Below the pieces are notes generated by a model that did not search any database, was not told the DNA's origin, and worked only from the letters and a program-made list of their open reading frames with translations. The translations under genes were made by a program, and so were the position numbers. Positions 14,337 through 42,720 of a DNA stretch of 42,733 bases are shown here, piece after piece; the first letter of the stretch is position 1, and each line of letters starts with the position of its first letter. Where the stretch lies: positions 1-42,733 of the forward strand of contig DATIDU010000104.1 in the NCBI GenBank assembly GCA_035456145.1, read 5' to 3'. The DNA is from Gaiellales bacterium. Lineage in GTDB: Bacteria; Actinomycetota; Thermoleophilia; Gaiellales; JAICJC01.

Positions 14337-14361
14337 GTTTCGCGTCGCGCGTCGTGGGTAG
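14337..14361 (+). promoter_or_regulatory. SigB/SigF-type promoter candidate GTTT-N15-GGGTAG
   Basis: GTTT at 14337-14340, a 15-nt spacer, then GGGTAG at 14356-14361. It lies 31 nt upstream of ATG 14393, and the AGGAGG RBS lies in between. Confidence 0.45.
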
Positions 14362-23553: not shown

Positions 23554-24558
23554 ATGCCGGCATCCCCCAGAACGGCGAGGCAAATCGCCCCGCAGACTCC
23601 CCCGGTTAGGGGATGCGAGGAGCACCGAGGCAGGGATAGGTTGCAGGCGATGGGCGTCTCCCGGTTGGGGCAACGGACCGACGACATCGTGTGGGACGAG
23701 GGGCACGAGAACGACTTCTTCCGACGCATGCCGTCCGCGCTTTCGCTGGTGCTCGAGGCCACCGACCTCGAGTCGCTGGCCCATGCCACTGCGAAGGGTG
23801 CCGAGGTGCTGTGGGAGTGCGCCGCCGAGGTCGTTCTGCCGTCGGAGGGCGAGCTTCGGCGGAAGATCCAGGCGACGTCGCTGAACGGCAGGCGGAGGCC
23901 CGAGGGGTTCCGCCACGACCGGCGGGCCGCCGCACTGCGGATGCCGCTCATCGCCCACGACGCCCGCCTCGGCGAGCTCGTGCTGCGGCGGGAACGGCCC
24001 CTCGGCCGCCAGGAACACGGCCACGTCCAGTACTACGCCGAACTGTGCGCGCTCGCGGTGCACTCCTGCTTCATGCGCGAGCAGTTCCACCGCGCCGCCG
24101 TGACGGACTCGCTCACCGGCATCGCCAACCGCCACCGCCTGATGGAGGAGCTCGACCATCGGGCCGGTGCGCCGTACCGGCTCCTGATGCTCGACGCGGA
24201 CGGCTTGAAGCAGGTGAACGACTCGCTCGGGTACGAGGACGGCGATCTCCTGATCGTCGCTCTGGCCGATGCGCTCACCTCGGTCCTCGAGGCCGGCGAG
24301 GTGGCGGCCCGGCTCGGCGGCGACGAACTCGTGGCCGTCCTGAACCCCCTGTCGCCGGCCGACGCCTCGGCCCGCGTCCACCGGCTGCGCGTCCTCGTCG
24401 ACGACCTGCCGCTGCCGCGCCGCATCCGCGACATCTGCCAGGGGGCGAGCGTCGGCTGCGTCGCGTCGCGGCCCGGCGAGACGCCGCGTGAGACGCTGCG
24501 GCGGGCGGGCGCCGAGATGCAGCGGCACAAGCGGCGGCGGAAGTCCGACCGGCGGTGA
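23554..24558 (+). CDS. GAF-like sensor + GGDEF-domain protein with degenerate GGDEL motif
   Basis: 334-aa ORF with LTGIANR, DADGLKQVNDSLGY and RLGGDELVAV (F to L). There is no RxxD I-site 5 residues upstream. The start is uncertain (23554 or ATG 23650). Confidence 0.8.
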   Translation: MPASPRTARQIAPQTPPVRGCEEHRGRDRLQAMGVSRLGQRTDDIVWDEGHENDFFRRMPSALSLVLEATDLESLAHATAKGAEVLWECAAEVVLPSEGELRRKIQATSLNGRRRPEGFRHDRRAAALRMPLIAHDARLGELVLRRERPLGRQEHGHVQYYAELCALAVHSCFMREQFHRAAVTDSLTGIANRHRLMEELDHRAGAPYRLLMLDADGLKQVNDSLGYEDGDLLIVALADALTSVLEAGEVAARLGGDELVAVLNPLSPADASARVHRLRVLVDDLPLPRRIRDICQGASVGCVASRPGETPRETLRRAGAEMQRHKRRRKSDRR

Positions 24559-26897: not shown

Positions 26898-28184
26898 GTG
26901 GAGGTGATGGTGGACATCCTTGGCGGATCACCGGGCAGGGCCGCCGAGCTCGACTCGGCGATAGATGCACCGATCGCTGCGGCGCGCGCCCGCATGCCCG
27001 AGCGCCTCTCGCACCGCGACCGGGTCGTGAGCGGGCTCCTCTCGACGGCGTTCCTCGCGGTCGCCGTCCCGCTCGCCGTCGCCGCGCCCGACGGCGGCCG
27101 CCACCCGGGCATCGCCCTGGTCGCCGCGTTCACGGTGGCGTACGCCGTGTGCTCGTGCATCGAGTTCGAGGTGTCGAGCGGGACGGGCGTGCCGACGATG
27201 CTCGTGCTCGTCCCCATGCTCTTCGTGCTTCCGCCCGGCTGGGTGCCGCTGGTCGTCGCCGCGGGACTCCTCGGCGGCGGTGCCTGGGAATGGCGTCGCG
27301 GCGACCTGCACCCCGAGCGCGGGCTCGTGCTGACCTCGGGCGCCTGGCACGCCGTCGGCCCAGCCCTCGTCCTGTCGTTCGCGGGGGCGCCGCCGCCGCG
27401 GCTCTCCGACTGGCCCATCTACGCGGCCGCGCTCGCAGCACAGTTCGGCTTCGACTTCGCGAGCGCCGCGCTCCGCGAGCGGATCGCCTTCGGCGTCCCC
27501 GTCAGCGTGATGGCGCCGGCGATCGCACGCGTGTGGGTCATCGACCTGCTCCTCGCACCGCCCGCGTTCCTCGCGGCGCTCGCGACGGCCGGCGAGCCGT
27601 ACGCATGGCTGCTCGTGCTTCCGGCGGCCGCGCTCCTCGCCGACATGGCCCGCGACCGGCGCGCCCGCATCACCGAGGCGCTGCGGCTGGCGCACGCGTA
27701 TCGCACGGTCGACCACAAGGCCCATCGCGACCCCCTGACCGGCGTCGGGAACCGGCTGGCCTGGGACGAGGCCGTGGCGCTCGCCGACGCCCAAAGCGCC
27801 GGGCCGGTCAGCGTGATCATCGCCGACCTCGACGGCTTGAAGCGCGCGAACGATGAGCGCGGCCACGACGTGGGTGACGCGCTGATCTGTGCGGCCGCCG
27901 AGACGATCCGCCACCAGGTGCGGGAGTCCGACCTGGTCGCCCGGCTGGGCGGCGACGAGTTCGGCGTGCTGCTCTCCGGCGCGTCACCGGCACGGTGCCG
28001 GCTCACAGCCGAGCGGATCGCGAGCGCGGTCTCGGAGCACCCTCCCGTCCGGGGCATCCGGCTCTCGGTCTCACTCGGCTGGGCCGCCACTCCCGACGTC
28101 CCGTCGGTCTCGGAGGCCAAGCGGGTGGCCGACAAGCAGATGTACGCACAGAAGCAGTCTCACCTCGCTGCCCGGCCGGCATAG
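26898..28184 (+). CDS. Membrane-anchored diguanylate cyclase (multi-TM N-terminal domain + GGDEF)
   Basis: 428-aa ORF with an N-terminal ~6 TM region, then LTGVGNR, DLDGLKRANDERGH, an RESD I-site and RLGGDEF. The start is GTG 26898 or ATG 26907. Confidence 0.85.
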   Translation: MEVMVDILGGSPGRAAELDSAIDAPIAAARARMPERLSHRDRVVSGLLSTAFLAVAVPLAVAAPDGGRHPGIALVAAFTVAYAVCSCIEFEVSSGTGVPTMLVLVPMLFVLPPGWVPLVVAAGLLGGGAWEWRRGDLHPERGLVLTSGAWHAVGPALVLSFAGAPPPRLSDWPIYAAALAAQFGFDFASAALRERIAFGVPVSVMAPAIARVWVIDLLLAPPAFLAALATAGEPYAWLLVLPAAALLADMARDRRARITEALRLAHAYRTVDHKAHRDPLTGVGNRLAWDEAVALADAQSAGPVSVIIADLDGLKRANDERGHDVGDALICAAAETIRHQVRESDLVARLGGDEFGVLLSGASPARCRLTAERIASAVSEHPPVRGIRLSVSLGWAATPDVPSVSEAKRVADKQMYAQKQSHLAARPA

Positions 28185-28654: not shown

Positions 28655-30370
28655 CTACGGCGGCAGCGTCGCGGCGCACTCCAGGACGAGCGCGTGCACG
28701 AACGCCTGGGGGAGGTTCCCCCGCAGCTGGCGCTGGGAGACGTCCCACTCTTCGGCGTGGATGCCCGGGCCGCCGCTCGCGCTTCGGGCCCGCTCGAACC
28801 AGCGCGTCGCGCGGAGCGGCTCGCCCTGTCCGTGCAGCGCGAGCGCCATCCACAGGCCGCAGATGAGAAACGCGCCCTCGGATTCGCCGAGCGGGCGATC
28901 GTCGAGCCGGTAGCGGTAGGCGAAGCCGTCCTCGGCCAGCTCGCGGTCGACCGCCTCGATCGTGGCCCGGGTGCGCGGGTCGCCCGGCGGGACGGCTCCC
29001 CGGATCCCGGCCGTGAGGAGCGATGCATCGACCCGCTCGTCACCGGCCGCGCGCTGCCAGCGCCCGGACGGATGCAGACCCCAGGCCGTCGCGTCGGCCA
29101 CGAGGGTGTCAGCCAGCGCGTCCCACTCGGGGAGGCCGGCGCCGGCAGCGCCGATCCGGCGCAGGCCCGCGGCGCAGATCAGCGTGCTGTGCGTCCAGCG
29201 GGCCGGGTCGAGCTCCCACACCCCGGAGTCCTGCTCGCGCCGGCGGGCGGCCACCGCGTCGGCGGCCACAGCCGCTGCGCGCCGCCCCTCGGCGTCGAGG
29301 CGGTCGCGCCGGGCGGCGGCCGCGAAGAGGAGCAGCGCCTCGCCGAAGCAGTCGAGCTGGAACTGGTCGGCGGCACTGTTGCCGACCACGTCGCAGCGCC
29401 CGGGGTAGCCGGGCAGGTCGAGGCTGCGCTCGCCGGGGACCTCGCCGCCGGCGGTCGTGTACACGGGCCGAAGCTGGGGCCCGTCGTCGATGAGGCGCGC
29501 CGAGACCGTGTGCACCGCGTCATCCAGGATCTCGTCGACGCCGGCGGCCGCAGCCGCCTGCCCGGCGTAGCACTGGTCGCGGATCCAGGCGTAGCGGTAG
29601 TCGTAGTTTCGCCCTTCGCGCGCCCGCTCCGGAAGCGAGGTGGTCGCCGCCGCGACCATCGCGCCGGACGAGGCGGTCAGCCCGCGCATGACCGCCACGG
29701 CGTGCCGAGCCTCGCGGGTCGCAACGGCGTCCTCGAGCTCGGGGACGCGATCGGCCCACGCCGCCTCCGTCTCTCGCCACGCCCGCTCTGCGGAGGGCGG
29801 CGGGGCGGGGTCGCCGGCGCGATCGAGGACGAGCACCAGGTCGTGGACATCGCCTTCGGCGAGATCGAGGTGCAGCTCCAGGAGCCCGTCGCGGCCCGGC
29901 CGCGCGGCGGCGGCCCCCGCCCAGAGCCCCGCCACCTCGCCGCTGCGAAGGCGCCAGAGGTCGCCGTCCAGGCGGGGCGGATCCAGGCCCGCCGCGCCGA
30001 ACCCGGCCCTGGGCGACAGCCGCACCGAGAGCGCCGCCCGGCCGGCCACGACGCCGATCCGCCGCAGGACGACCGCTCGGTCGGGGCGCGACGGGAGCGC
30101 GAGCGCCTCACGGCATTCGACGATCGCCTCGTCCGTCACCCAGCGGCTGCGCCAGATGAGCGACCCCCGCTCGTAGTAGCCGCCCCACACGTACCGGCCG
30201 CGCGGCCGCACCGCGTAGGTCCCTCCGCCGCCGATGATCTCCGAGAAGACCCCGTCGGAGTCCCAGCCGGGGAAGCACATCCAGGCGATGTCGCCGTCGG
30301 GGCCGACCAGCGCGCCGCGCTCGCCGTCGGCGATGAATGCGTAGTCGCGAAGGACGTGCGGCCGGGTCAC
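28655..30370 (-). CDS. Glycoside hydrolase family 15 (glucoamylase/trehalase-like)
   Basis: This is the last 571 codons of ORF 28655..32452, with LRDYAFIADGERGALVGPDGDIAWMCFP and NYDYRYAWIRDQCYA. The GTG at 30370 overlaps the upstream stop (GTGA). Confidence 0.9.
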   Translation of the reverse strand: MTRPHVLRDYAFIADGERGALVGPDGDIAWMCFPGWDSDGVFSEIIGGGGTYAVRPRGRYVWGGYYERGSLIWRSRWVTDEAIVECREALALPSRPDRAVVLRRIGVVAGRAALSVRLSPRAGFGAAGLDPPRLDGDLWRLRSGEVAGLWAGAAAARPGRDGLLELHLDLAEGDVHDLVLVLDRAGDPAPPPSAERAWRETEAAWADRVPELEDAVATREARHAVAVMRGLTASSGAMVAAATTSLPERAREGRNYDYRYAWIRDQCYAGQAAAAAGVDEILDDAVHTVSARLIDDGPQLRPVYTTAGGEVPGERSLDLPGYPGRCDVVGNSAADQFQLDCFGEALLLFAAAARRDRLDAEGRRAAAVAADAVAARRREQDSGVWELDPARWTHSTLICAAGLRRIGAAGAGLPEWDALADTLVADATAWGLHPSGRWQRAAGDERVDASLLTAGIRGAVPPGDPRTRATIEAVDRELAEDGFAYRYRLDDRPLGESEGAFLICGLWMALALHGQGEPLRATRWFERARSASGGPGIHAEEWDVSQRQLRGNLPQAFVHALVLECAATLPP

Positions 30371-31330
30371 CGTCGGAGCGACCGAGCCGCGAGCAGCGCA
30401 CCGCCGGCGGCGGCGAGCAGCGCGCCGCGGTGCGTGGCGAGCCAGAGCTCGAGGCTCTGAGAGGCCCCGTCCTCGACCGGCTCGAACAGGTTGTCGGGCC
30501 GGTCGCGGTCGACCGGCACGCCCTGCATCTGCTGGGCGTCGTAGCCGGTCCGGGCAAGGTAGCGGTCGGCGAGCCCGGGCGCGACCATCGACGCCGCGAT
30601 CGCCTTGAGCGCGCTCCCGCCCACGATCAGCTCGCGGCGGCGGTGCGTCGCCGCCCAGTACACGGCCTCGGCGGGCACGTCCGGGGTCGAAGATCGGCGG
30701 GACCGGTTGCGGATGATCCGGGAGCCGTGTGCGGCACCACGAGAACTGGGGCGTGTTCACGGCCGGGAGCTGCACCATCGTGATCCACACGCGGCTTCGG
30801 TCGTGCAGGAGCTCCGTGCGGACGGAGTCGGTGAAGCCGCGGACGGCGAACTTCGCGCCGCAGTACGCCGCCTGAAGCGGGATCGCGCGGTATGCGAGGG
30901 CCGAGCCGACCTGGACGACGACGCCGTGGTCGCGCGGAACCATCCGCCGCAGCGCGGCCATCGTGCCGTGCACGGTGCCCAGGTACGCCGCCTCGGTCGC
31001 CCGCCGGAACTCGTCGGGCGCCGTCTCGGCGAGCGGTGCGAACACGGTCGCCATCGCGTCGTTCACCCACACGTCGATCGGCCCCGCCTTCCGCTCGACG
31101 GCCTGCGCGGCCGCGTCCACCTCGTCGTGCTCGGCGACGTCGGCCGGGAGGACGAGCGCCGTCCCGCCCAGCGCGCGCACCTCCTCCGCCGCGGCCTCGA
31201 GGCCGGCCCGTCCCCGGGCGACGAGGCCGACCGTTGCGCCGCGGCGGGCGAAGGAGTGGGCGACCGCCCGCCCGACGCCCGCCGACGCGCCGGTGACCAC
31301 CACCACCTGGGGCGGCGGCGCGTCCCTCAC
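30367..31330 (-). pseudogene. SDR-family oxidoreductase interrupted by a single +1 frameshift (or sequencing error)
   Basis: The N-terminal ~213 codons (VVVVTGASAGVGRA.., NDA, YCGAKFAV, ..PVPPIFDP) are in one frame. The conserved C-terminus (VPAEAVYWAATHRRRELIVGG..DRYLARTGY, ORF 30367..30678) is in the +1 frame. The break is at TCCGGGG, 30680-30686. The GTG at 31330 overlaps the GMC stop (GTGA). Confidence 0.7.
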
Positions 31331-32931
31331 GCCGCCCACCTGCCGTTGGCCTCCACTCGCCGCGCGGCCAGCCGCTCGGCGAGCCGGGCCGCGAGGGCCA
31401 TGATCGTGAGTGCAGGGTTGGCGCTCCCCTGCGTGGGCATCACGCTCCCGTCGCAGACGAACAGGTTGCGAACGCCCCACACCCGGTGGTCCGCGTCGAC
31501 GACGCTCGTCTCGGGGTCTGTCCCCATCCGGCACCCGCCGACGAGGTGCGCGTACCGGTCGATCGTGAGAATGTCCTGGGCGCCGGCCGCCTCCCAGATG
31601 CGGTTGATCATGCGCTTGGCGTATGCGACGTTCGCGCGGTCGTTCTCGCACTGGGTGTAGCTGAACCGGGCGACCGGCATGCCGAACTGATCCGTCTCGC
31701 CGGCGAGCGTCACCCGGTTCTCGGCCCGCGGGAGGAGCTCGCACAGGGCGCCGAGCACGGCCCAGTGGTTGTAGTCGCGCATGTATTCGCGCAGGGCCGT
31801 GCCGTGGTGCCCGTCGGCGAGCACGTGCTCGGCCCAGCCGATCGGGAGCGGGCTCACGGTCTGGATCGAGAAGCCGCGGGCGAAGCAGCGCTCGGGATCC
31901 GTCTCGTAGAACTGCTCGGAGGAGACCTCCGGCGGCGGCGCCTTGTACATCCGCAGGAGCTCGGGGAAGCGGCCCGCGATCTGCGGAGCGCCCTGCACCA
32001 TCACGTAGCGGCCCACCTGGTCGTGCTCGTTCCCGACCCCGGAGTGCAGCAGGAGCCGGGGCGTCTCGATCGCGTAGCCGCACACCGCCACGGCGCGGGC
32101 ACGCTGCACGCGCTCGGTGCCGTCGCGGACGTAGCGGACGCCGGAGGCCGAGCCGCCGCCGTCCATCTCGATCCCGACGACCATCGCGTCGGCCCGGACC
32201 TCCGCCCCCTGGTCGAGGGCGTCGGGCACATGCGTGACGAGCGGGCTGGCCTTGGCGTTCACCTTGCAGCCCTGAAGGCAGAAGCCGCGGTAGATGCAGT
32301 GCGGCCGGTTCCCGAAGCGGCCGTTCGTGATCGCCACCGGGCCGACGCGCATCTCGATGCCGCAGGCCCGCGCGCCCTCCCAGGCCCGCTCGGCGGCGCC
32401 GCAGACCGGGTGCGGGCGGTGCGGATAGCCGTGCGGGTCGCCCCATGGCCACCGCTGCCCCGCGACGGGTAGCTCACGTTCCAGCACGCGGTAGTGGTCG
32501 CGCAGCTCGGCGTAGGTGATCGGCCAGTCGGCGCCGACACCGTCGACCGTGCGGGTGGCGAAGTCCGACGGGTGAAACCGAGGGGTGTAGCCGGCGAAGT
32601 GCACCATCGAGCCGCCGACGCCGAGACCGCTGTTGTTCTTGCCCATCTCGACGGGGTCCTCGCCCGCGATGATGCGGGTGTCGTTCCAGTAGAGGTGCGA
32701 CGAGCCGGCCTCGTCGGATACCCAGTCGCGGTCGGGATCCCAGAACGGCCCCCGCTCGAGGACGACGATCCTCCACCCGGCCCGTGCCAGCCGCTGGGCG
32801 AGCACGCCGCCACCCGCGCCGCAGCCGACGATCGCCATGTCAACCGCATCGTCGTCGCGAAAGCGGCGCATCCGATCGAGGCCGGGAACGCCGCGCCGGT
32901 GCGGGTGAAGCAGGAGGTGGGAGCGATTCAT
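31327..32931 (-). CDS. GMC-family FAD-dependent oxidoreductase
   Basis: The N-terminus has DMAIVGCGAGGGVLAQRLARAGWRIVVLERGP. The C-terminus has HLVGGCRMG..VCDGSVMPTQGSANPALTIMALA. The ATG at 32931 overlaps the upstream stop (ATGA); an alternative ATG is at 32871. Confidence 0.9.
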   Translation of the reverse strand: MNRSHLLLHPHRRGVPGLDRMRRFRDDDAVDMAIVGCGAGGGVLAQRLARAGWRIVVLERGPFWDPDRDWVSDEAGSSHLYWNDTRIIAGEDPVEMGKNNSGLGVGGSMVHFAGYTPRFHPSDFATRTVDGVGADWPITYAELRDHYRVLERELPVAGQRWPWGDPHGYPHRPHPVCGAAERAWEGARACGIEMRVGPVAITNGRFGNRPHCIYRGFCLQGCKVNAKASPLVTHVPDALDQGAEVRADAMVVGIEMDGGGSASGVRYVRDGTERVQRARAVAVCGYAIETPRLLLHSGVGNEHDQVGRYVMVQGAPQIAGRFPELLRMYKAPPPEVSSEQFYETDPERCFARGFSIQTVSPLPIGWAEHVLADGHHGTALREYMRDYNHWAVLGALCELLPRAENRVTLAGETDQFGMPVARFSYTQCENDRANVAYAKRMINRIWEAAGAQDILTIDRYAHLVGGCRMGTDPETSVVDADHRVWGVRNLFVCDGSVMPTQGSANPALTIMALAARLAERLAARRVEANGRWAA

Positions 32932-33599
32932 TCCAGACCGCGCTCCCGGACGTCGCGGACCGGGTCGACCTCGAACGCCTCGCGGCCCTCCCACGGCTCG
33001 TGGCGGTCGACGCCGAGCGCCTGGTACCCGCGCGGGTAAGCCGGTCCGCCGAACCCGATCTCGTTCCAGGCCCACGGATGGGAGTAGAACGCCTCGAGCA
33101 GGTCGCGCATGACGACGGCGTAGGCCCGCTTCACGTTCACGCCGTCCCAGGCACCGCCGGAGAGCCGGCCCGCGGCGAGCTCCTCCGCGATCCGCTCACG
33201 CGTCTCCGCCGGGGCGTTCGCGTACGGCTCCCCCGCCGCCTCGTCGAGCCCGCCCGCCACGGTCCGCCACGTCTCGCGGTCGTCGGGCATGTCCTCGTAG
33301 CGGTAGCCGTCGCCGCGGCCGCTCTCCAGCTTCGCGTCGACGAACGAGAGCGCCGGAACGCGCGGCTCGCGATCCTGGGCGAGCACGACGTCGCCGAAGG
33401 CCGTCAGCGTGGCGAACTCCTCCCGCGAGAAGAACCGGCGTTCGGGGGGCGACTCAACACGGGCCAGGATCAGCTCGCGCGTGCGCTCGTCCCAGTGGCC
33501 GAGCTCCTCCATGACGTCGAAGTCCGGGTAGCGGCCGCGCATCTGGGGGGTCGTGCCGCGCCGCTGCCGGGGGAGCCCCGCCGGCTCCGCAGAGCTCAT
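32928..33599 (-). CDS. Gluconate 2-dehydrogenase subunit 3-like protein
   Basis: This is the last 223 codons of ORF 32928..33878. RRFFSREEFATLTAFGDVVLAQD..ALSFVDAKL resembles the subunit-3 family that partners GMC dehydrogenases. No hydrophobic Tat/Sec signal follows the N-terminal RQRRG. The ATG at 33599 overlaps the upstream stop (ATGA). Confidence 0.75.
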   Translation of the reverse strand: MSSAEPAGLPRQRRGTTPQMRGRYPDFDVMEELGHWDERTRELILARVESPPERRFFSREEFATLTAFGDVVLAQDREPRVPALSFVDAKLESGRGDGYRYEDMPDDRETWRTVAGGLDEAAGEPYANAPAETRERIAEELAAGRLSGGAWDGVNVKRAYAVVMRDLLEAFYSHPWAWNEIGFGGPAYPRGYQALGVDRHEPWEGREAFEVDPVRDVRERGLE

Positions 33600-34015
33600 C
33601 GCTCCCGTTCCATGAGCGGCGCCAGGAGGCCGAGCGCGCCGACCGCCAGGAGTGCGCCCGGCGCCAGGAGCGGCGGCCCCATGACCAGGTTGTAGGCGGT
33701 CTCGCGGAAGCCGCCCGGCCGGCGATGGATGCCGCGGACGTGCGTCACGAGGCCCGCCACGCCGTCCAGCACGAAGAGCGCGGACACCGCCGGCAGCGCG
33801 GTCCGGGCCACCCGGGGCGAGAAGGCGGCGGCGACGCCCGCAACCGTCAGCGGCGGCGCGAGGACGATCGGCGTCCACATCCAGCGGTCGGCGAACGACC
33901 CCTTCTCGTGCTCGAGATAGATCTCAAACGCAAGCGGCGGCGCGGCCGCGGCGGCGGCCAGTCCCAGCGTCTTCTGCATGCGCCCGGCGCGGAGGTTGGC
34001 GAGCACGCGTCTCAT
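33596..34015 (-). CDS. Small integral membrane protein (about 4 TM), unknown function
   Basis: 139-aa ORF. ATG 34015 is preceded by GAGGAG. Hydrophobic segments are present. It is translationally coupled to the subunit-3-like gene. Confidence 0.6.
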   Translation of the reverse strand: MRRVLANLRAGRMQKTLGLAAAAAAPPLAFEIYLEHEKGSFADRWMWTPIVLAPPLTVAGVAAAFSPRVARTALPAVSALFVLDGVAGLVTHVRGIHRRPGGFRETAYNLVMGPPLLAPGALLAVGALGLLAPLMERER

Positions 34016-34025
34016 CGGACTCCTC

Positions 34026-35144
34026 TCATCGGATGGCGTACCGCTCGGCGTCGGGGTGCTTCAGGTCGTAGCCGGCACCGGGGCGGGACAGGTCGGGCCG
34101 CAGGCATCCGTGCTCCGGCTCGGCGGGGCCGTCGAGGAGCAGCGCCTCGGCGCGGACGTGGTCTGCGAAGTACTCGAGATGGCGCAGCCGGCCGGCGGCG
34201 CAGCAGGGATGCAGGTGCGCCGCGGGCGCGCAGTGGGCCGACAGGTCGAGGCAGTGGGCGGAGCACAGTGCGGCGACGCGCAGGAACCCGGTGATGCCGC
34301 GGCAGCGGGTGACGTCGGCCTGAAGACAGTCGACCGCGCCGGCTCCGAGGAGGCGTGCGAAGTCGACGTCAGCGAAGCCGTACTCGCCCGCGGCGAGGTC
34401 GATCCCGGCCGGCAACCGGTCACGCAGGAGCCGCAGGCCCGCCAGGTCGTCCGACGACACGGGCTCCTCGAACCAGACGACGCGGGCCGGCGCCAGCACG
34501 TCCTCGGCGAACGCCAGGGCCGCCTTGCGGGAGAGGGCGCCGTTGGCGTCGGCCATGAGCTCCGCGCGGGGGCCGATCGCGCTGCGGGCGAGCGCCACCC
34601 GGCCAGGGTCGGCGGCCGGATCGCGCCCGACCTTCATCTTGACACGCGGGATGCCCATCTCCACCCAGCCGCCGAGCTGGCGCTCCAGCTCGGCGTCAGT
34701 GAGCGACGTGAAGCCGCCGCTGCCGTAGACCGGCACCTCGTCCCGGGCCTCGTCGAGCAGCGTGACGAGTGGCAGGCCGAGCAGGCGCGCCTTCAGATCC
34801 CAGAGCGCGAGGTCGACCGCCGCGATCGCCATCGACGCCACGCCGACCGAGCCGGCGTTCCGGCAGGCGGCGACCATCCCCTCCCAGGCGACGGCTACGG
34901 CGAAGGCGTCACGGCCCACGACCACCGGCGCGAGGAGCTCGTCGACGACGCTGCGGCAGGCACGGGAGCCGTAGGTGTAGCCCACGCCGGTCTCGTCGCC
35001 GGCGTGCGCCTCGACGACGATCATGACGGTCGAGGCCCACCGCGCCGTCCCATCCGACTCAGGCGTCTCGAGCGGGATCTCGAACGCCCGCGCATCGAGG
35101 GCCGAGACGGCGGCCTCGGTGCCGGCGACGGTTACCTGGCTCAC
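34026..35144 (-). CDS. Enolase-superfamily enzyme (mandelate racemase/muconate lactonizing enzyme family, possibly a sugar-acid dehydratase)
   Basis: This is the last 372 codons of ORF 34026..35873, with KMKVG, ADANGA, FEEPV and DLAAGE metal/catalytic motifs. The GTG at 35144 overlaps the upstream stop (GTGA). Confidence 0.88.
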   Translation of the reverse strand: MSQVTVAGTEAAVSALDARAFEIPLETPESDGTARWASTVMIVVEAHAGDETGVGYTYGSRACRSVVDELLAPVVVGRDAFAVAVAWEGMVAACRNAGSVGVASMAIAAVDLALWDLKARLLGLPLVTLLDEARDEVPVYGSGGFTSLTDAELERQLGGWVEMGIPRVKMKVGRDPAADPGRVALARSAIGPRAELMADANGALSRKAALAFAEDVLAPARVVWFEEPVSSDDLAGLRLLRDRLPAGIDLAAGEYGFADVDFARLLGAGAVDCLQADVTRCRGITGFLRVAALCSAHCLDLSAHCAPAAHLHPCCAAGRLRHLEYFADHVRAEALLLDGPAEPEHGCLRPDLSRPGAGYDLKHPDAERYAIR

Positions 35145-36925
35145 CGCTCCGGGAGCAGCCCGGCGACCATCTGCCGAAGGGACTGCCGGATCATGCGGCC
35201 CCGGTCGGGATCCCCGCGGACGACCGCCTCGGCGAAGTGGCGGGCCTGCTCGAACGTGATGTGCGGCGGAAGCGGCGGCACCTCGGGATCCGTGACGGCC
35301 TCGAGCACGGCCGGGCGGCCTGCGGCAAGCGCCGCGTCCCAGGCGGCGCCGACGTCTTCGGGATCGTCCACCCGGATGCCGGCAAGCCCGATCATCTCCG
35401 CGAACCGCGCGTACGGGAAGTCGGGGATGTCCTGCGACGCCTCGTACTTCGGGTCGCCCTGCATGACACGCTGCTCCCAGGTGACCTGGTTCAGGTCGTG
35501 GTTGTTCAGCACCATCACCACCAGGCGCTGGTCGCGCCAGCGCTCGTGATACTTGGCGATCGTGATCAGCTCGGCCATGCCGTTCATCTGCATCGCGCCG
35601 TCGCCCACGAGCGCGATCACCGGGCGGGCGGGATGCGCGAACTTGGCGCCGATGGCGTACGGCACGCCCGCGCCCATGGTCGCCAGGTTGCCCGAAAGCG
35701 ACGCCATCATCCCGTCGCGCACCCTCACGTCGCGCGCGAACCAGTTCGCCGCCGAGCCGGAGTCGGAGGTGATGATCGCCCGGTCGGGCAGGCGGAGGGC
35801 GAGCTCGTGGAACACCCGCTGGGGGTTGATCGGGTCGGCCGGAGACAGCGCCCGCTCCTCGAGAACATGCCACCAGTCGCCGACGGAGCGTTCGATGCGC
35901 TCACGCCACGAGGCGTCGGTCTTCGGCTCGAGCAGCGGCAGGAGCGCCGCGAGCGTCGCGCGGGCATCGCCGACGAGCTGCACCTCCATCGGGTAGCGGA
36001 TGCCGAGCATGCGTCCGTCGACGTCGATCTGCACGCCGCGCGCCTGGCCCTCCTCGGGGAGGAACTCCGAGTAGGGGAAGCTCGACCCGACCATGAGCAG
36101 CGTGTCGCACTCGTCCATGAGCTCCCAGCTCGGCCGGGTGCCGAGCAGGCCGATCGAGCCCGTCACGAACGGCAGGTCGTCGGCGACGACGGCCTTGCCG
36201 AGGAGCGCCTTCGCGATCCCGGCGCCGAGCGTCTCGGCCGTCAGGATGACCTGGTCGCGTGCGCCCAGCGCGCCCTGGCCGACGAGCATCGCCACCCTCT
36301 CGCCGGCGTTCAGCACCTCGGCCGCCCGCTCGAGGTCGGCCCGCTGGGGCACGACAACGGGCCGCGAGTATCCCGGGGAGGAGTGGATCGTGCCGTGCGC
36401 GCGGCCCGGCTCCTCGGCCGGTCGCGCCGCAAGGTCGTTGGGGACGACGATGCAGGTGACCGTGCGCTGGTCGAGCGCGATGCGCGCCGCGCGGTCGACC
36501 AGGTGGCGCATCTGGGACGGGTCGGTCGCCATGTGCACGTACTCGTGGGCGACGTCCTTGAACAGGGTCGTCAGATCGACCTCCTGCTGGTAGGAGCCGC
36601 CCAGCGCGGGCATCGCCTGCTGCCCGACGATCGCGAGCACCGGCTGGTGGTCGAGCTTCGCGTCGTAGAGGCCGTTCAGGAGGTGGATCGCCCCGGGGCC
36701 CGACGTGGCCAGGCAGACGCCGAGCTGGCCGGTGAACTTGGCGTGCGCGCAGGCCATGAACGCCGCCATCTCCTCGTGCCGCGCCTGGATGAACTCCGGG
36801 TCGCCGTCCGCACGGTCGAACGCGCCCATGATGGCGTTGATCCCGTCGCCGGGATAGCCGTAGACGCGGTGGATCCCCCACTCGCGCAGGCGCGAGACGA
36901 GGAAGTCGGCGACGGACTCAGCCAT
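35141..36925 (-). CDS. Thiamine-pyrophosphate enzyme, pyruvate oxidase/pyruvate dehydrogenase (quinone) PoxB-like
   Basis: 594-aa ORF with RHEEMAAFMACAHAKFTG, ATSGPGAIHLLNGLYDA and the TPP motif GDGAMQMNG..NNHDLN. Confidence 0.9.
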   Translation of the reverse strand: MAESVADFLVSRLREWGIHRVYGYPGDGINAIMGAFDRADGDPEFIQARHEEMAAFMACAHAKFTGQLGVCLATSGPGAIHLLNGLYDAKLDHQPVLAIVGQQAMPALGGSYQQEVDLTTLFKDVAHEYVHMATDPSQMRHLVDRAARIALDQRTVTCIVVPNDLAARPAEEPGRAHGTIHSSPGYSRPVVVPQRADLERAAEVLNAGERVAMLVGQGALGARDQVILTAETLGAGIAKALLGKAVVADDLPFVTGSIGLLGTRPSWELMDECDTLLMVGSSFPYSEFLPEEGQARGVQIDVDGRMLGIRYPMEVQLVGDARATLAALLPLLEPKTDASWRERIERSVGDWWHVLEERALSPADPINPQRVFHELALRLPDRAIITSDSGSAANWFARDVRVRDGMMASLSGNLATMGAGVPYAIGAKFAHPARPVIALVGDGAMQMNGMAELITIAKYHERWRDQRLVVMVLNNHDLNQVTWEQRVMQGDPKYEASQDIPDFPYARFAEMIGLAGIRVDDPEDVGAAWDAALAAGRPAVLEAVTDPEVPPLPPHITFEQARHFAEAVVRGDPDRGRMIRQSLRQMVAGLLPER

Positions 36926-37502
36926 CGGAGCGCGATCCCGTAGCAGCGGTGCGCGAGCCGTGCGCGGCGAGCTGGTTCAGCATCTGCTCGCAGAACGCGG
37001 GCAGGTCGTCAGGCTTTCGGCTGCTCACAAGCATGCCGTCCACGTGGACCGTCTCCTCGACCCACGTCCCGCCGGCGTTTCGGATGTCGGTCTGAAGCGA
37101 CGGCCACGACGTGATGGTGCGGCCCTTCACCACGTCCGCCTCGACGAGCGTCCACGGGCCGTGGCAGATCACCGCCACCGGGCGCTCGTCGGTGAAGAAG
37201 GCCTTCACGAACCGCACCGCCCGCGGGTCGGTCCGCAGCATGTCGGGGTTCGCCACGCCGCCGGGCAGGACGAGCCCGTCATAGCGCGCCGGGTCGGCAT
37301 CATCGAGGCCCTGGTCGGCGTTGTAGGTCTTCGACTTGTCGAGGTGGTTGAACGCCTGGACGCTCCCGCCCTCCGGGGAGACAAGCTCCGGCTTTCCGCC
37401 GGCCTTCTGGACGGCCTTCCAGGGCTCGGTCATCTCGATCTCCTCGACGCCCTCGTCGGCGACGAGAAACGCGATGGTCTGTCCGTTCAGGTCTGGTGCC
37501 AT
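36918..37502 (-). CDS. DJ-1/PfpI family protein (type 1 glutamine amidotransferase-like, general-stress-protein-18-like)
   Basis: 194-aa ORF with the nucleophile elbow VAVICHGPW and LVLPGG. Its 3' end overlaps the next gene by 8 nt. Confidence 0.9.
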   Translation of the reverse strand: MAPDLNGQTIAFLVADEGVEEIEMTEPWKAVQKAGGKPELVSPEGGSVQAFNHLDKSKTYNADQGLDDADPARYDGLVLPGGVANPDMLRTDPRAVRFVKAFFTDERPVAVICHGPWTLVEADVVKGRTITSWPSLQTDIRNAGGTWVEETVHVDGMLVSSRKPDDLPAFCEQMLNQLAAHGSRTAATGSRSDG

Positions 37503-37511
37503 TGGGGGTCC

Positions 37512-37847
37512 CTACCGTTTCTTTGCATCGACGGCCCGCTGAAGCTGGGCCTTGTTCATGCTGGAGCGGCCCTGGATGCCGCGCTGCTTCGCCTCGTTGT
37601 ACAGCTGCGCCTTTGTGCGGCCCTTCGGCCGGTTCGTGCCAGACCGCTGTCCGCCGCGGCGCGACGAGGACATGTCCTGGGTCGAGCTCCGGGAGGCGGT
37701 CCGGGTCTGACCCTTCTGCGCCCGCTCCTTGTTGACCGTCCGCGCGGCGATCTCCTTGGCGCGCCGCGGGGATGCCCCCTGCTCGCGCTCGGAGTCGCGA
37801 ATGTGCTCGTACTTGCGTTCCTGTTTCCCGGTCCAGGTGCTGGGCAT
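37512..37847 (-). CDS. Small basic hydrophilic protein with C-terminal Rho_N/SAP-like motif
   Basis: ATG 37847 follows GGGAG at 8 nt. The 111 aa include KQERKYEHIRDSEREQG..AKEIAARTVNKERA and C-terminal TKAQLYNEAKQRGIQGRSSMNKAQLQRAV. Confidence 0.7.
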   Translation of the reverse strand: MPSTWTGKQERKYEHIRDSEREQGASPRRAKEIAARTVNKERAQKGQTRTASRSSTQDMSSSRRGGQRSGTNRPKGRTKAQLYNEAKQRGIQGRSSMNKAQLQRAVDAKKR

Positions 37848-37885
37848 GACTGGCTCCCAAGTCGAACGACGTGTACACCGCGCGG

Positions 37886-37911
37886 ATACCCGCACGTGCC
37901 GCCCGGCTAAC
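37886..37911 (-). promoter_or_regulatory. SigB/SigF-type promoter candidate GTTA-N16-GGGTAT
   Basis: The minus strand reads GTTA (37911-37908), a 16-nt spacer, then GGGTAT (37891-37886). It lies 38 nt upstream of ATG 37847, the first gene of the nine-gene operon. Confidence 0.45.
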
Positions 37912-37914
37912 GGG

Positions 37915-38103
37915 TCAGGAGTTGCGCTCGTGGTCAGGCGCGGGCGCCGCCGGCTTCGCCTCGTCGCGGTTCCGGCGGTCAGGCTTCGGCGCCTCGCGCT
38001 TGGTGCCGTAGCGGTCCTCCTCGGATTCCGGGCGGCCGGGGTCGGAGCCGCCCGGATACTCCTCGCCGTGCGAGCGGTCTTCGCCGGAGCTTGGGCGGCT
38101 CAT
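37915..38103 (-). CDS. Tiny hydrophilic, probably disordered protein (62 aa)
   Basis: The ORF is rich in E/D/R/P/G. Its ATG overlaps the stop of the upstream membrane-protein ORF (ATGA at 38100-38103). Confidence 0.5.
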   Translation of the reverse strand: MSRPSSGEDRSHGEEYPGGSDPGRPESEEDRYGTKREAPKPDRRNRDEAKPAAPAPDHERNS

Positions 38104-38375
38104 CCCTGCGTCCGGTCGCGCGACGCCGCGACGGTGTCACGGGTTTCGGTCTCGGGCGGTGACATCGCCTGGCCGACCGCCTCGCCGGGCTCCTGCTCCT
38201 CGACCCGGCGGCCGCCGCGGCTCGCGGCCGCGCCGCGAAGGGCGCCACCGACCAGGACGAGGGCCAGGATGATCACAAGCGGGATGGCCAGGAGAGCTGC
38301 GCCCGGCACGATCACGATCGAGACGAGGGCGAGCAGGAGCACGATCACGATCAGGATGGGGGTTGCTGCAATCAT
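38100..38375 (-). CDS. Small membrane protein (91 aa, two hydrophobic helices)
   Basis: This is the C-terminal part of ORF 38100..38744. ATG 38375 is followed by IAATPILIVIVLLLALVSIVIVPGAALLAIPLVIILALVLVGG. Confidence 0.6.
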   Translation of the reverse strand: MIAATPILIVIVLLLALVSIVIVPGAALLAIPLVIILALVLVGGALRGAAASRGGRRVEEQEPGEAVGQAMSPPETETRDTVAASRDRTQG

Positions 38376-38384
38376 GGCTCCGTG

Positions 38385-38409
38385 GTACCCGCACGCGAAG
38401 CGGCGCAAC
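38385..38409 (-). promoter_or_regulatory. Weaker SigB/SigF-type promoter candidate GTTG-N15-GGGTAC
   Basis: The minus strand reads GTTG (38409-38406), a 15-nt spacer, then GGGTAC (38390-38385). Only 9 nt separate the -10 from ATG 38375, so the transcript would be nearly leaderless. Confidence 0.3.
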
Positions 38410-38414
38410 CCTCC

Positions 38415-38440
38415 GTTTGGCCCGTTCGTCTGACGGGTAG
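38415..38440 (+). promoter_or_regulatory. SigB/SigF-type promoter candidate GTTT-N16-GGGTAG
   Basis: GTTT at 38415-38418, a 16-nt spacer, then GGGTAG at 38435-38440. It lies about 130 nt upstream of ATG 38573. Confidence 0.4.
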
Positions 38441-38572
38441 AACCGGGGCGACTCCGCTGGGAGAAACGTCCCCCGGTCCGGCGCCGGCGCCTACCGGCCC
38501 AACGCCCGTCGCAGGCTTCGTCGGGGGCCGGGTCCGGGGGCAACCGTATCCGCGAAGAGAGGGCATCTGGGC

Positions 38573-38812
38573 ATGGCGCAGGGCGCAGGGATCGACGCGA
38601 CGAGCAGCCTGACCGACGTCCAGGAGGCGTTCCGGGGCCAGGGCATGGAGCTCGTCGTCCGCCTGCGCGGAACGAGGTGGCAGGCGCTCGTGCGCGCCAT
38701 CCCCGGCAACGGCAGGCTGCACGCCGACGCGTGGGCCGCCTCACCCGACGAGGCCGCCCGGCGCGCGTGGCGGCGCCACATCGAGGAGCACGGCGGGACC
38801 GGGGCGAGCTAA
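38573..38812 (+). CDS. Hypothetical small protein (79 aa)
   Basis: The ORF has strongly GC-biased third positions and ends in a TAA stop that is the first triplet of repeat copy B. I recognise no family. Confidence 0.55.
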   Translation: MAQGAGIDATSSLTDVQEAFRGQGMELVVRLRGTRWQALVRAIPGNGRLHADAWAASPDEAARRAWRRHIEEHGGTGAS

Positions 38813-38908
38813 ACGCGGGGGAACCCAGGGTTCCCCGCGAGCCCCCTCCTTAACGGCCGGCGTCGCGTTTGCCGCACGACGGCGAAGAACGCGGTCTTCG
38901 CCGTCGCC
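38810..38908 (+). repeat. Two-hairpin intergenic repeat element, copy B
   Basis: TAAACGCGGGGGAACCCAGGGTTCCCCGCGAGCCCCCTCCTTAA..GACGGCGAAGAACGCGGTCTTCGCCGTCGCC. The first ~46 nt and last ~30 nt are near-identical to copy A, and the middle ~25 nt diverge. The stem change A:T (copy A) to G:C (copy B) is compensatory. Confidence 0.75.
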
Positions 38909-39038
38909 TCCCCCGTCAGTCGCTTGCTCCCGGACGTCCCGATTCGGTCCGGCGGCCGGCGATCGGGGTCACACCCCGCACCAGACGCGTCACACCCGTG
39001 TCACAGCCGCGATGCGGGTCTGACCCCAGGGTTCGACG

Positions 39039-40010
39039 TCAGGCGCGTTCGGTCGTGGCCGGCTGGAGGAAGACGTGCCGGATGGCCGGATCCCGGCTCC
39101 GCAGGTCGTCGATGATCCGGTCGGTGAGCTCCTCGATCTCGGGGACCGAGAGCTCGTCGCGAAACTCCACCCGGCCGGCGACGAGGACGTCGTCGGGGCC
39201 CACGTGCATCGTCCGTAGCTCCGGGACGGAGACGACCTCGGGGCGGCCCTCGATCTCGCGCTCGAGAAACTCGCGCGTCTCGGCCCGGGCCGATTCCCCG
39301 AGGAGGAGCCCCTTGGCGTGCGTGCCGACGCCGACCGCCGCTACCGCCAGGATGACGCCCACCCCGATCGAGGCGAGCGCGTCGAACGTCTCGCTCCCGG
39401 TAAGCACGCTCGCCCCGAGCCCGGCGGCAGCGACGAGCACGCCCGCGACAGCCGCAGTGTCCTCGAGCAGCACGACCCGGGGGACCGGGTCGCGCACCTC
39501 GCCGACGAAGCGCGTGAACGACACCCTTGAGCGCACGGCCCCCTGCCGCAGCTGGCGCGCGGCCCGGATCAGCGAGATGCCCTCGGCGACGAACGCCACG
39601 CTCAGAACCACGAACGACACGAGGGGATCCCCGATGGAGTGCCCGTCGCGCAGCGCCAGGACGCCCTGACCGATCGAGAAGACCGCGCCGGCGAAGAAGA
39701 TCCAGACGGCGGCAACGAACGCCCAGAAGAAGCGCTCCTTGCCGTGGCCGAACTGATGCTCCTCGTCGGCCGGCCGGCGGCCGAGGTGAAGCGAGGCGAG
39801 CAGGACGAGCTGGTCGACCGTGTCGGCGGTCGAGTGGGCAGCCTCGGCCAGCATCGCCGCCGAGCCGCTGGCGAGTCCGGCCAGGAGCTTGGCGAGCGCG
39901 ATCAGTGCGTTGGCCGCCAGCGCGACGAGGATCGTGAGCCGGCTCTCCCCCTCCTGCTCCCCACGCTCGGCGCCACCGGCGGGAGTCCGGCGCTTCGTCG
40001 CCTCGGCCAT
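39039..40010 (-). CDS. Cation diffusion facilitator (CDF) family metal efflux transporter
   Basis: 323-aa ORF with TM region motifs (SAAMLAEAAHSTADTVDQ, FGHGKERFFWAF) and a C-terminal cytoplasmic domain. It starts 5 nt after the MFS stop. Confidence 0.9.
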   Translation of the reverse strand: MAEATKRRTPAGGAERGEQEGESRLTILVALAANALIALAKLLAGLASGSAAMLAEAAHSTADTVDQLVLLASLHLGRRPADEEHQFGHGKERFFWAFVAAVWIFFAGAVFSIGQGVLALRDGHSIGDPLVSFVVLSVAFVAEGISLIRAARQLRQGAVRSRVSFTRFVGEVRDPVPRVVLLEDTAAVAGVLVAAAGLGASVLTGSETFDALASIGVGVILAVAAVGVGTHAKGLLLGESARAETREFLEREIEGRPEVVSVPELRTMHVGPDDVLVAGRVEFRDELSVPEIEELTDRIIDDLRSRDPAIRHVFLQPATTERA

Positions 40011-41511: not shown

Positions 41512-41538
41512 ATGCCCGCCCGCGGAGGCCGCGAAACC
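41512..41538 (-). promoter_or_regulatory. SigB/SigF-type promoter candidate GGTTT-N16-GGGCAT
   Basis: The minus strand reads GGTTT (41538-41534), a 16-nt spacer, then GGGCAT (41517-41512, one mismatch to GGGTAT). It lies about 35 nt upstream of ATG 41476. Confidence 0.35.
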
Positions 41539-41552
41539 GCTGCGAGGCAGTG

Positions 41553-41578
41553 GTTTGCCGCGCGCGCGGGAGGGGTAG
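41553..41578 (+). promoter_or_regulatory. SigB/SigF-type promoter candidate (G)GTTT-N16-GGGTAG
   Basis: GTTT at 41553-41556 (preceded by G), a 16-nt spacer, then GGGTAG at 41573-41578. It lies 13 nt upstream of ATG 41592. Confidence 0.45.
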
Positions 41579-41591: not shown

Positions 41592-41837
41592 ATGCGGCTC
41601 GCGAGCTACCACACCGCCTACGGCAGCCACCGGGGGGCGTGGTGCACGTTCCACGAGGTGCGCATGCTCGCGATGCGCGTGACCGAGGACGGCCCGCGAC
41701 TCATCGAGTCGCCCGAGGAGCTGACCGAGGGCACGATCCTCCACGCCCATGACGGACGCTACCTCGAGGTGTTCATCGTCGATTTCAAGGGCCGGTACTT
41801 CTGCGAGACCGTCGACGTCGGAGACACCGCGGCGTGA
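41592..41837 (+). CDS. Hypothetical small protein (81 aa)
   Basis: This is the in-frame ATG within ORF 41280..41837, after the divergent promoter region. The stop overlaps the next GTG (GTGA). I recognise no family, and the start is uncertain. Confidence 0.5.
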   Translation: MRLASYHTAYGSHRGAWCTFHEVRMLAMRVTEDGPRLIESPEELTEGTILHAHDGRYLEVFIVDFKGRYFCETVDVGDTAA

Positions 41838-42337
41838 CGGAGGCGGCTATCAACAAGGCTCGCCGCGCCGGGGCGGCGTACGCCCCGCCCGAGGCCGGTA
41901 TCCCGCTTCGGGGCTACGCGGGCGTCATCGCCACGTTCACGTCGGTGGGTTCGGTCGCGTTCGTGGCCGCGGCCCGCCGCGGGCTGCCGGAGCGGATCGG
42001 GCTCGGCGACCTGGCGCTGCTCTCGGTCGCCACGCACCACGCCGCCCGGCTCGTCACAAAGGACAAGGTGACGAGCGTCGCCCGGGCTCCGTTCACGGAG
42101 TACGAGGGCTCGGGAGATCCCGGCGAGGTCGAGGAGCATCCGCGCGGGCATGGGCTCCAGAAGGCGGTGGGCGAACTCGTGACCTGCCCGTACTGCATCG
42201 GGCAGTGGATCGCGCTCGCCGGGGTGACCGGGCTCATGCTGGCGCCGCGGACGACGCGCGCGATCGCATCGGTGCTGACGGTGTCGGCCGTGTCGGACTA
42301 TCTCCAGATCGTGCACCGCGCGGTCTCGCCGGAATGA
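41834..42337 (+). CDS. DUF1360-like membrane protein
   Basis: 167-aa ORF with LVTKDKVTSVARAPF.. and GELVTCPYCIGQWIA, typical of DUF1360. It is coupled on both sides by 4-nt overlaps. Confidence 0.8.
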   Translation: MTEAAINKARRAGAAYAPPEAGIPLRGYAGVIATFTSVGSVAFVAAARRGLPERIGLGDLALLSVATHHAARLVTKDKVTSVARAPFTEYEGSGDPGEVEEHPRGHGLQKAVGELVTCPYCIGQWIALAGVTGLMLAPRTTRAIASVLTVSAVSDYLQIVHRAVSPE

Positions 42338-42720
42338 GCGCGCGCGCCGGCTCACCTGGCCGCATCGCCCGGGTCGGCGGCCGCCTCGCAACTGCCGAGG
42401 CACGCCTCATCGGCGCCGAGCTGCGGCGGGCGATGCGGTGGACGGCCGCTGCGACCGCGCTCGCCGGTGCCGCCGCCACCGTGGGTGTCGGCGCGGCCGC
42501 CTGCCTCGTGGCCGCGGTGGTGCTGGGGTTGGCGACCGCGATGCCCGCCTGGCTCGCGGCGCTCGTCGCGGGCGCCGTCCTGCTCGTCGTCGCCGGGTTC
42601 CTGGCACTCCTGGCGCGCGAGGCGGCGAAGGACGCGGCGGGCGCCCTCCGGCAGACGACCGAACGAGCACAGGAGGAGGCCCGATGGATGGGGACGCTGA
42701 TCAGCTCGAACGGGAGGTAG
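42334..42720 (+). CDS. Holin-X/phage-holin-family-like small membrane protein
   Basis: ATG 42334 (ATGA overlap). The 128 aa have a charged N-terminus, two hydrophobic helices (TAAATALAGAAATVGVGAAACLVAAVVLGL; AWLAALVAGAVLLVVAGFLALL) and a charged C-terminus. Confidence 0.65.
   Translation: MSARAGSPGRIARVGGRLATAEARLIGAELRRAMRWTAAATALAGAAATVGVGAAACLVAAVVLGLATAMPAWLAALVAGAVLLVVAGFLALLAREAAKDAAGALRQTTERAQEEARWMGTLISSNGR

Follow-up and report, generated by a model that had tools for sequence, protein, structure and literature searches.

Promoters of the stress sigma factors SigF and SigB have been characterized in Mycobacterium and Streptomyces. The consensus of Mycobacterium smegmatis SigF is GTTT-N(14-19)-GGGTA; in Table 1 of that report the spacings are mostly N15 or N16, GGGCA and GGGAA variants of the second box occur, many sites lie 8-11 nt from the start codon, and both GTTG-N15-GGGTA and GTTT-N16-GGGCA are found among SigF-dependent genes (PMC4694148). 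Also, a GGGTA -10 motif was found at mapped hypoxia-induced transcription starts of M. smegmatis (PMC6448022). In Streptomyces coelicolor, the promoters of SigB homologues read GTTT..GGGTA(C/T/G), transcription beginning 8-10 nt past the hexamer, and Streptomyces has nine SigB homologues that cross-recognize (PMC8346170). We found no literature connecting Gaiellales or Solirubrobacterales with SigB or SigF. Here, we analyze contig DATIDU010000104.1 (assembly GCA_035456145.1) of a Gaiellales bacterium, a stretch of 42,733 nt with a G+C content of 72.3% that we call the window, and we describe in it a set of two-box motifs of the form GTTN-N15/16-GGGTA. Most probably (we estimate about 85%) these motifs serve as promoters for an RNA polymerase holoenzyme with an alternative sigma factor of group 3, from the SigB/SigF/SigG family. 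Comparison of the sequences gives good support to a known kind of promoter occurring in a class, the Thermoleophilia, for which we found no description of it in the literature.

Results

The window contains five exact sites and one variant, which we named P1 to P6:

37886..37911, minus strand: candidate promoter P1, GTTA-GCCGGGCGGCACGTGC-GGGTAT (N16), direct sequence reading
38385..38409, minus strand: candidate promoter P2, GTTG-CGCCGCTTCGCGTGC-GGGTAC (N15), direct sequence reading
38415..38440, plus strand: candidate promoter P3, GTTT-GGCCCGTTCGTCTGAC-GGGTAG (N16), direct sequence reading
41513..41537, minus strand: candidate promoter P4, variant GTTT-N16-GGGCA(T), from the one-mismatch scan, upstream of the major facilitator superfamily (MFS) and cation diffusion facilitator (CDF) genes
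41553..41578, plus strand: candidate promoter P5, GTTT-N16-GGGTAG, from the exact-motif scan
14337..14361, plus strand: candidate promoter P6, GTTT-N15-GGGTAG, from the exact-motif scan

A first-pass annotation of this DNA had placed three motifs in 37886-38440 (37911->37886 and 38409->38385 on the minus strand, 38415..38440 on the plus strand), and our reading agrees with it base for base. The same annotation had listed exact copies of GTTT-N15/16-GGGTA at 14337, 38415 and 41553 as intergenic and correctly oriented, and had estimated well below one such copy per window by chance. We found these three exact copies, positioned and oriented as described, and the estimate was correct, 0.02 copies being expected from 100 dinucleotide-preserving shuffles, none of which reached three. 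The looser GTTN-N15/16-GGGTA occurs five times, where 300 first-order Markov runs gave 0.26 on average and never more than 2. GGGTA pentamers number 27 on both strands of the window, and five of the 27 have GTT at the correct spacing. Genes were called with our own crude codon-bias caller, and the gene map combines these calls with Pfam and NCBIfam searches and with independent calls in syntenic contigs. The calls leave 4,497 nt (10.5%) of the window uncovered, and all five copies of the looser motif fall in this fraction, every one of them intergenic and aimed at a gene start. In a position-weight scan of the window, a score of at least 12 bits was reached by the five exact sites only. The boxes and spacing of SigB/SigF/SigG-type promoters are found in five exact sites and in one GGGCA variant, P4. 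A one-mismatch scan of the window added P4 and two further matches, 11883->11860 and 38854->38831, which we judged unconvincing and do not count as sites. Scanning 37400-39100 for sigma-70-type promoters revealed nothing.

In order to extend the comparison, a genome collection was scanned with the 111-aa product of the first gene behind P1 as query, and 80 loci were obtained, one per species (loci are designated here by L numbers). They come mostly from Thermoleophilia bins (Gaiellales, Solirubrobacterales, Thermoleophilaceae), with some Streptomyces and Nocardia, and amount to 0.93 Mb of DNA that is 85.6% coding by our calls, leaving 14% non-coding. GTTN-N15/16-GGGTA has 73 matches in this DNA against 10, 11 and 14 for control spacings, counts that speak for specificity of spacing, position and orientation and not for a number of independent events. 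Bare GGGTA is intergenic in 284 of its 704 copies, and 59 of the 73 matches to the full motif lie in the intergenic 14% of the sequence. By position, the matches are distributed as follows:

32 of 73: tandem intergenic, aimed at the downstream gene
2 of 73: tandem intergenic, aimed away
24 of 73: divergent intergenic
1 of 73: convergent intergenic
14 of 73: within a called gene

Some of the 14 matches inside genes reflect start codons that our caller over-extended. The pattern scan for intergenic enrichment and orientation suggested by the first-pass annotation, run here on the related DNA, supports both properties: the motif is not as frequent inside genes or in the wrong orientation as it is upstream of genes, being intergenic in 59 of 73 cases and co-oriented in 32 against 2 anti-oriented. 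Measured between the A of GGGTA and the start codon, the distances have two modes, the first narrow (11-15 nt, 17 cases) and the second broad (approximately 26-51 nt). A possible explanation is that the first mode corresponds to leaderless transcripts and the second to leaders with a ribosome-binding site. In all footprint alignments both boxes are invariant and the spacer sequence drifts. Among the families recurrently found behind the motif in L001-L080 are DJ-1/PfpI with its own promoter and a HAD hydrolase; a protein that reads as Fe/Mn superoxide dismutase-like from its sequence also occurs behind it, and predicted leaderless targets in these loci include an acidic protein of about 138 aa, a membrane protein of about 175 aa and an MFS transporter.

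Conservation is most extensive at P1. In 14 aligned upstream regions, which represent about eight lineages, GTT and GGGTAT are invariant and the spacer is variable. Of the 80 loci, 62 have a GGGTA in the 130 nt preceding the 111-aa homologue, and when 61 distinct upstream sequences are anchored on this pentamer, GTT(T) appears at -19..-16 and a C precedes GGGTA, giving cGTTT-N15-cGGGTA. Streptomyces homologues of this gene likewise carry an upstream GGGTAC. At P2, GGGTTGC and GGGTA are invariant in four lineages, as are AAAC and TACCC (P3 in reverse-strand view); the ATG of the P2/P3 region is invariant too. P4 is conserved as GTTTCG-N15/16-GGGCAT with a variable spacer in L081, L087 and L002, and a canonical GGGTA site is seen at the MFS homologue of L065 and of L076. 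P5 is conserved as GTTTG...GGGTAGCCAG in L001, L002, L081 and L087. At P6, GTT and GGGTAG are invariant in five lineages, in which the upstream neighbor is either a PAS-GGDEF-EAL gene or a divergent CO-dehydrogenase flavoprotein gene.

The first-pass annotation had also called for a search for a SigB/SigF-like sigma factor with partner-switching genes; such genes are present in relatives, beside the 111-aa homologue, and absent from the window. The search was started by tblastn with a Bacillus subtilis SigB probe that served as a lead only, and matches were then verified with NCBIfam. It revealed sigma genes in 13 loci, approximately 1-3 kb from the 111-aa homologue, so that this family adjoins SigB/F/G sigma genes in L016, L023, L026, L030, L031, L034, L036, L046, L060, L077, L017, L019 and L073. 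With the SigB/SigF/SigG model TIGR02980 (cut-off 234.35), the Thermoleophilia loci L016 and L060 score 244.8 and 243.4 bits, respectively, and the sigma gene beside the 111-aa homologue of the Nocardia locus L073 is also above the cut-off; a neighbor in L073 has a weak UsfY match below its cut-off (75.5 vs 100 bits). NCBI annotates the homologues of the L016 sigma factor as SigB/SigF/SigG family, under Solirubrobacteraceae names only, none being specifically Gaiellales. In L017, a sigma gene that falls below the cut-off with a truncated start is accompanied by a STAS antagonist and an RsbW-like HATPase_c_2 gene, and RsbW-like and STAS genes near the 111-aa homologue are found in L019 as well. 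Directly upstream of the 111-aa homologue, L091 and L005 have a MEDS+HATPase_c_2 gene of the RsbA anti-sigma family (model NF041045, 327 bits in L091 vs a cut-off of 210), and L004 and L089 have related MEDS/HATPase_c_2 genes at this same position. Sigma and partner-switching proteins are both encoded in Thermoleophilia, and their genes are habitually found next to homologues of the gene that opens the P1 operon. Additionally, several Solirubrobacterales loci have a PF10057 (MpsC-domain) gene upstream of the one for the sigma factor.

Genes behind the promoters

P1 stands before a nine-gene operon:

28655..37847, minus strand: operon predicted to be driven by P1, nine genes (gene calls, Pfam and NCBIfam matches)
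37512-37847, minus strand: gene 1, 111-aa hydrophilic protein (gene call)
36918-37502, minus strand: gene 2, DJ-1/PfpI (family match)
35141-36925, minus strand: gene 3, thiamine pyrophosphate (TPP) enzyme resembling pyruvate oxidase (family match)
34026-35144, minus strand: gene 4, MR/MLE enolase-superfamily protein (family match)
minus strand: gene 5, 139-aa protein (gene call)
minus strand: gene 6, gluconate-2-dehydrogenase subunit-3-like protein (family match)
minus strand: gene 7, GMC oxidoreductase (family match)
30370-31330, minus strand: gene 8, short-chain dehydrogenase/reductase (SDR), with an apparent frameshift near 30684
28655-30370, minus strand: gene 9, GH15/trehalase-like protein (family match)

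The P1 hexamer lies 38 nt before the ATG at 37847, the distance to the first gene of a nine-gene operon that the first-pass annotation had given, and our calls produce the same nine genes, as they do in the syntenic locus L081. Counted from the A of GGGTA the distance is 40 nt, which belongs to the longer-distance mode, and a ribosome-binding site of the GGAG type, GGGAG, is present. Pfam and NCBIfam searches assigned no family to five small proteins of the window, and the 111-aa protein gave just a sub-threshold Rho_N match. This family, with more than 8000 homologues scored, is often annotated as 'plasmid stabilization protein/ParE'. The SDR, when compared with its L081 orthologue, changes frame near 30684, residues 1-216 being in one frame and 216-331 in another, which may reflect a true frameshift (pseudogene) or a mistake in the assembly.

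P2 and P3 are back to back, with 5 bp between their -35 boxes in the window and 4-5 bp across all lineages, and stand before small genes:

38100..38375, minus strand: small membrane protein of 91 aa, opening the P2 unit (translation; no Pfam/NCBIfam family)
37915..38103, minus strand: 62-aa charged hydrophilic protein (translation)
38573..38812, plus strand: 79-aa protein gene downstream of P3 (translation)
38814..38839, strand not assigned: hairpin directly after the 79-aa stop codon (inverted repeats, gap to the convergent CDF gene)
38877-38906, strand not assigned: second hairpin in the gap between the 79-aa and CDF genes (inverted repeats)

Between the P2 hexamer and the ATG at 38375 there are 9 nt (11 nt from the A of GGGTA), a distance that fits the leaderless geometry, the 11-15 nt class common to 17 related motif-gene pairs. 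In this sense, the 38409 site would be a leaderless-type promoter, and here we correct the first-pass annotation. The 91-aa gene is called at the same length in L081, L082, L083 and L087. Its stop codon is overlapped by the start of the 62-aa gene (ATGA), and 4 nt lie between the end of the latter and the P1 -35 box. Compared with L081 and L087, the 62-aa protein has an identity of 62-68% and in-frame indels. The 79-aa protein has 71-73% identity to its 81-aa counterparts in L081 and L087 and is also conserved as a protein with in-frame indels. The two hairpins that follow it are likely terminators, though they have no T-runs.

P4 and P5 are likewise back-to-back and divergent, with a variable gap between them. 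P6 lies at a distance from the other sites:

40016-41476/41485, minus strand: MFS transporter gene behind P4 (gene call)
39039-40010, minus strand: CDF gene behind P4 (gene call)
41592..42720, plus strand: P5 unit, an 81-aa open reading frame (ORF), DUF1360 and a Holin-X-like gene, each overlapping the next (Pfam and gene calls)
41592-41837, plus strand: 81-aa ORF (MRLASYHTAYGSHRGAWC...), conserved, overlapping the DUF1360 start, of no known family
41834-42337, plus strand: DUF1360 gene (Pfam)
42334-42720, plus strand: Holin-X-like gene (Pfam)
14393-14686, plus strand: HesB/IscA-like gene (Pfam Fe-S_biosyn), starting 31 nt after P6

From the P5 hexamer to the ATG at 41592 there are 13 nt (15 nt from the A of GGGTA), a near-leaderless geometry. 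A conserved ORF begins there, which the gene calls also recover in L001, L002, L081 and L085-L088, and all three genes of the unit are called in L081 and L085-L088. The first-pass annotation had missed this ORF; in correction, the 41553 motif would drive the 81-aa ORF and not DUF1360 directly. P6, whose start codon lies 33 nt from the A of GGGTA, belongs to the longer-distance mode and is followed by a GGAG-type ribosome-binding site. The window also contains three c-di-GMP turnover genes (PAS-GGDEF-EAL at 12053-14335 and GGDEF at 23650-24558 and 26898-28184), the first of which stops 2 nt before the -35 box of P6. The coding signal in 4454-6400 is weak or ambiguous in the codon-bias calls, with just short, low-scoring ORFs, and a tRNA scan of the window found none.

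A conserved element in the P3 leader

The predicted leader between P3 and the 79-aa gene, of about 124 nt, includes the following element:

38465..38546, plus strand: conserved G+C-rich element of about 80 nt (identity to relatives)

This element is 89-91% identical to L087 and L002, compared with 38-48% for the rest of the leader and 76-86% for the adjacent coding DNA. In L002, P3 and the element are kept and the 79-aa ORF is gone, the convergent CDF gene ending about 25 nt further on. L081 and L082 are without a clean 27-nt internal segment that corresponds to exactly one predicted inner hairpin, and the substitutions in the element sit in predicted loops, bulges and linkers. Rfam gave no match at the gathering threshold for the whole window and none at E<=10 for 38380-38620. 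RNA structure is unsupported beyond sequence conservation, because there are no compensatory pairs in the element (0 with RNAalifold and also with an explicit Y-shaped structure) and its folding energies are no better than those of shuffles. A metagenome scan for the element returned 4 matches, one of them a true copy (L095) that is near-identical to the window. An 11-mer search in the related loci gave mostly chance matches and was discarded.

In mycobacteria, small RNAs that depend on stress sigma factors exist. The contrast between about 90% and about 40% conservation, the survival of the element in L002, the loss of a hairpin in L081 and L082 and the absence of an Rfam family lead us to suggest, tentatively and at odds clearly below even, that it may represent a new regulatory RNA, restricted in lineage and controlled by a stress sigma factor, acting as a cis-acting leader or as a small RNA. 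It is the only item of this locus that is possibly new, and a minor lead.

Discussion

Spacing specificity, position, orientation, conservation, the published consensus and the presence of sigma genes in relatives all support the SigB/SigF-type reading that the first-pass annotation had proposed. By analogy with the described systems, stress would lead an RsbW- or RsbA-type anti-sigma factor to free a SigB/F/G-type sigma factor by partner switching; region 4 of this sigma factor would contact GTTT at -35 and region 2 GGGTA at -10, and the holoenzyme would fire from P1-P6, turning the end of the window and one distant gene into a general-stress gene set. P1 would serve the nine-gene operon, with its hydrophilic protein, DJ-1/PfpI, TPP enzyme, sugar-acid and sugar oxidoreductases and GH15 protein. 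Transcription from P2 would start at or within a few nucleotides of the ATG at 38375 and produce a leaderless bicistronic mRNA for the 91-aa and 62-aa proteins. Since the gap from the 62-aa gene to the P1 -35 box is just 4 nt, this mRNA probably extends into the P1 operon. In the opposite direction, P3 would produce the leader of about 124 nt and the 79-aa gene. The MFS and CDF transporter genes would be expressed from P4, the 81-aa ORF, DUF1360 and the Holin-X-like gene from P5, and the HesB-like gene from P6. As P2/P3 and P4/P5 are back to back and divergent, each of these intergenic regions would control two units. The products plausibly make up a general-stress or desiccation set. It would comprise small proteins of hydrophilic or membrane type, oxidoreductases together with a DJ-1/PfpI deglycase and the trehalase-like GH15, transporters for metals and solutes, and an Fe-S protein of the HesB type. 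The conserved core of the regulon is clear, and its putatively leaderless component is strong.

Several points weigh against this interpretation. The gene boundaries are set by the crude codon-bias caller; all related loci were ascertained through one gene family, and many of the matches are orthologous copies and not independent; and the enrichment figures cover 0.93 Mb of fetched loci and not whole genomes. Two sites depart from the consensus, since the -35 box of P2, GTTG, is weaker than GTTT and the -10 box of P4 is GGGCA instead of GGGTA. Pfam and NCBIfam searches detected no sigma, anti-sigma or antagonist gene within the 42.7-kb window, the sigma genes were found in Solirubrobacterales, Nocardia and unclassified lineages and not in the closest Gaiellales-like relatives, and no convincing autoregulatory motif was seen upstream of the sigma genes in the 13 loci. 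Because the window holds no sigma or partner-switching genes, we infer the pairing of sigma factor and promoters in the Gaiellales organism from its relatives.

This last point leaves some room for another recognizer, that is, a different alternative sigma factor (of the extracytoplasmic function, ECF, type or another group-3 member) or a DNA-binding regulator for which the boxes would be half-sites near promoters. The pairing rests on analogy, and the existence of nine cross-recognizing SigB homologues in Streptomyces means that the exact paralogue cannot be named (PMC8346170). We nevertheless consider another recognizer unlikely, as the boxes match the experimentally defined SigF/SigB consensus (PMC4694148, PMC8346170). 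The spacing is fixed at 15/16 nt, the boxes are asymmetric and non-palindromic, as in a promoter and not an operator, they are oriented towards genes in 32 cases against 2, and their distances to start codons peak sharply at 11-15 nt. The consensus of ECF sigma factors, AAC at -35 and CGT at -10, does not fit.

Slightly less probable still is that only some of the sites work, P1, P5 and P6 being real and P2, P4 or P3 being weak, decayed or non-functional look-alikes. P2 has the lowest position-weight score (14.3 vs 17.5-21.9 bits), P4 carries GGGCA, and P3 has a long leader and has lost the ORF behind it in L002. Against this, four lineages with differing spacers all keep the boxes of P2, P3 and P4 unchanged, and P2 has exactly the leaderless geometry of the 17 other pairs; the box and spacing types of P2 and P4 are both represented among SigF-dependent genes (PMC4694148). 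Finally, chance clustering of T/A-containing words in less G+C-rich intergenic DNA, where rare T and A may accumulate and bare GGGTA is indeed enriched (284/704), can practically be dismissed, being already refuted by the control spacings (10-14 matches in the same DNA against 73), with an intergenic G+C content in the window hardly different from the overall one (70.9% vs 72.3%), counts that no shuffle or simulation reached and boxes conserved across lineages.

If the motifs are SigB/SigF-type promoters, the GTTT-N15/16-GGGTA code appears to hold across Actinomycetota, in Mycobacterium, in Streptomyces and now in Thermoleophilia (Gaiellales and Solirubrobacterales), a deep-branching, mostly uncultured class that is abundant in soil. 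A pattern scan of metagenome-assembled genomes could predict the general-stress regulons of uncultured Thermoleophilia. Many targets being apparently leaderless, the motif could also be used to correct start codons, and it could reveal unannotated small genes, as it did for the 81-aa ORF at 41592. Additionally, a very abundant and misnamed family, that of the 111-aa protein, is linked to the stress-sigma system both as a conserved target and as a neighbor of sigma and anti-sigma genes.

Comparison with known systems

The SigF promoters of M. smegmatis and M. tuberculosis share with those described here the same boxes, the preferred 15/16-nt spacing, many start distances of about 10 nt and GGGCA variants. 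The targets are also alike, including small conserved hypothetical proteins, oxidoreductases, SDRs, trehalose-related enzymes and transporters (PMC4694148, PMC6448022). The differences are that our sequences belong to another class, of uncultured Thermoleophilia-like (Gaiellales-type) bacteria, and that no autoregulatory site was seen at the sigma genes of the relatives. With the SigB homologues of S. coelicolor, the promoters have in common the GGGTAC/T/G -10 box, and the RsbA-family anti-sigma genes in the loci of relatives recall RsbA/RsbB switching; the -35 box is here a strong GTTT/GTTA, whereas in S. coelicolor it is GTTT or a loose GNNT. B. subtilis SigB (GTTTAA-N12-14-GGG[A/T]A[A/T]) uses the same two boxes and controls a large regulon in which oxidoreductases occur with small proteins of hydrophilic or membrane type, but it belongs to another phylum with an A+T-rich genome, its hexamers are longer, its nominal spacer is shorter and its mRNAs have leaders. 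The DJ-1/PfpI protein YfkM and the pyruvate-oxidase-type YdaP of B. subtilis are SigB-dependent. In this sense, the DJ-1/PfpI protein, the pyruvate-oxidase-like enzyme, the SDR, the trehalase-like GH15 and the small hydrophilic proteins found in the window resemble the known SigB and SigF regulons.

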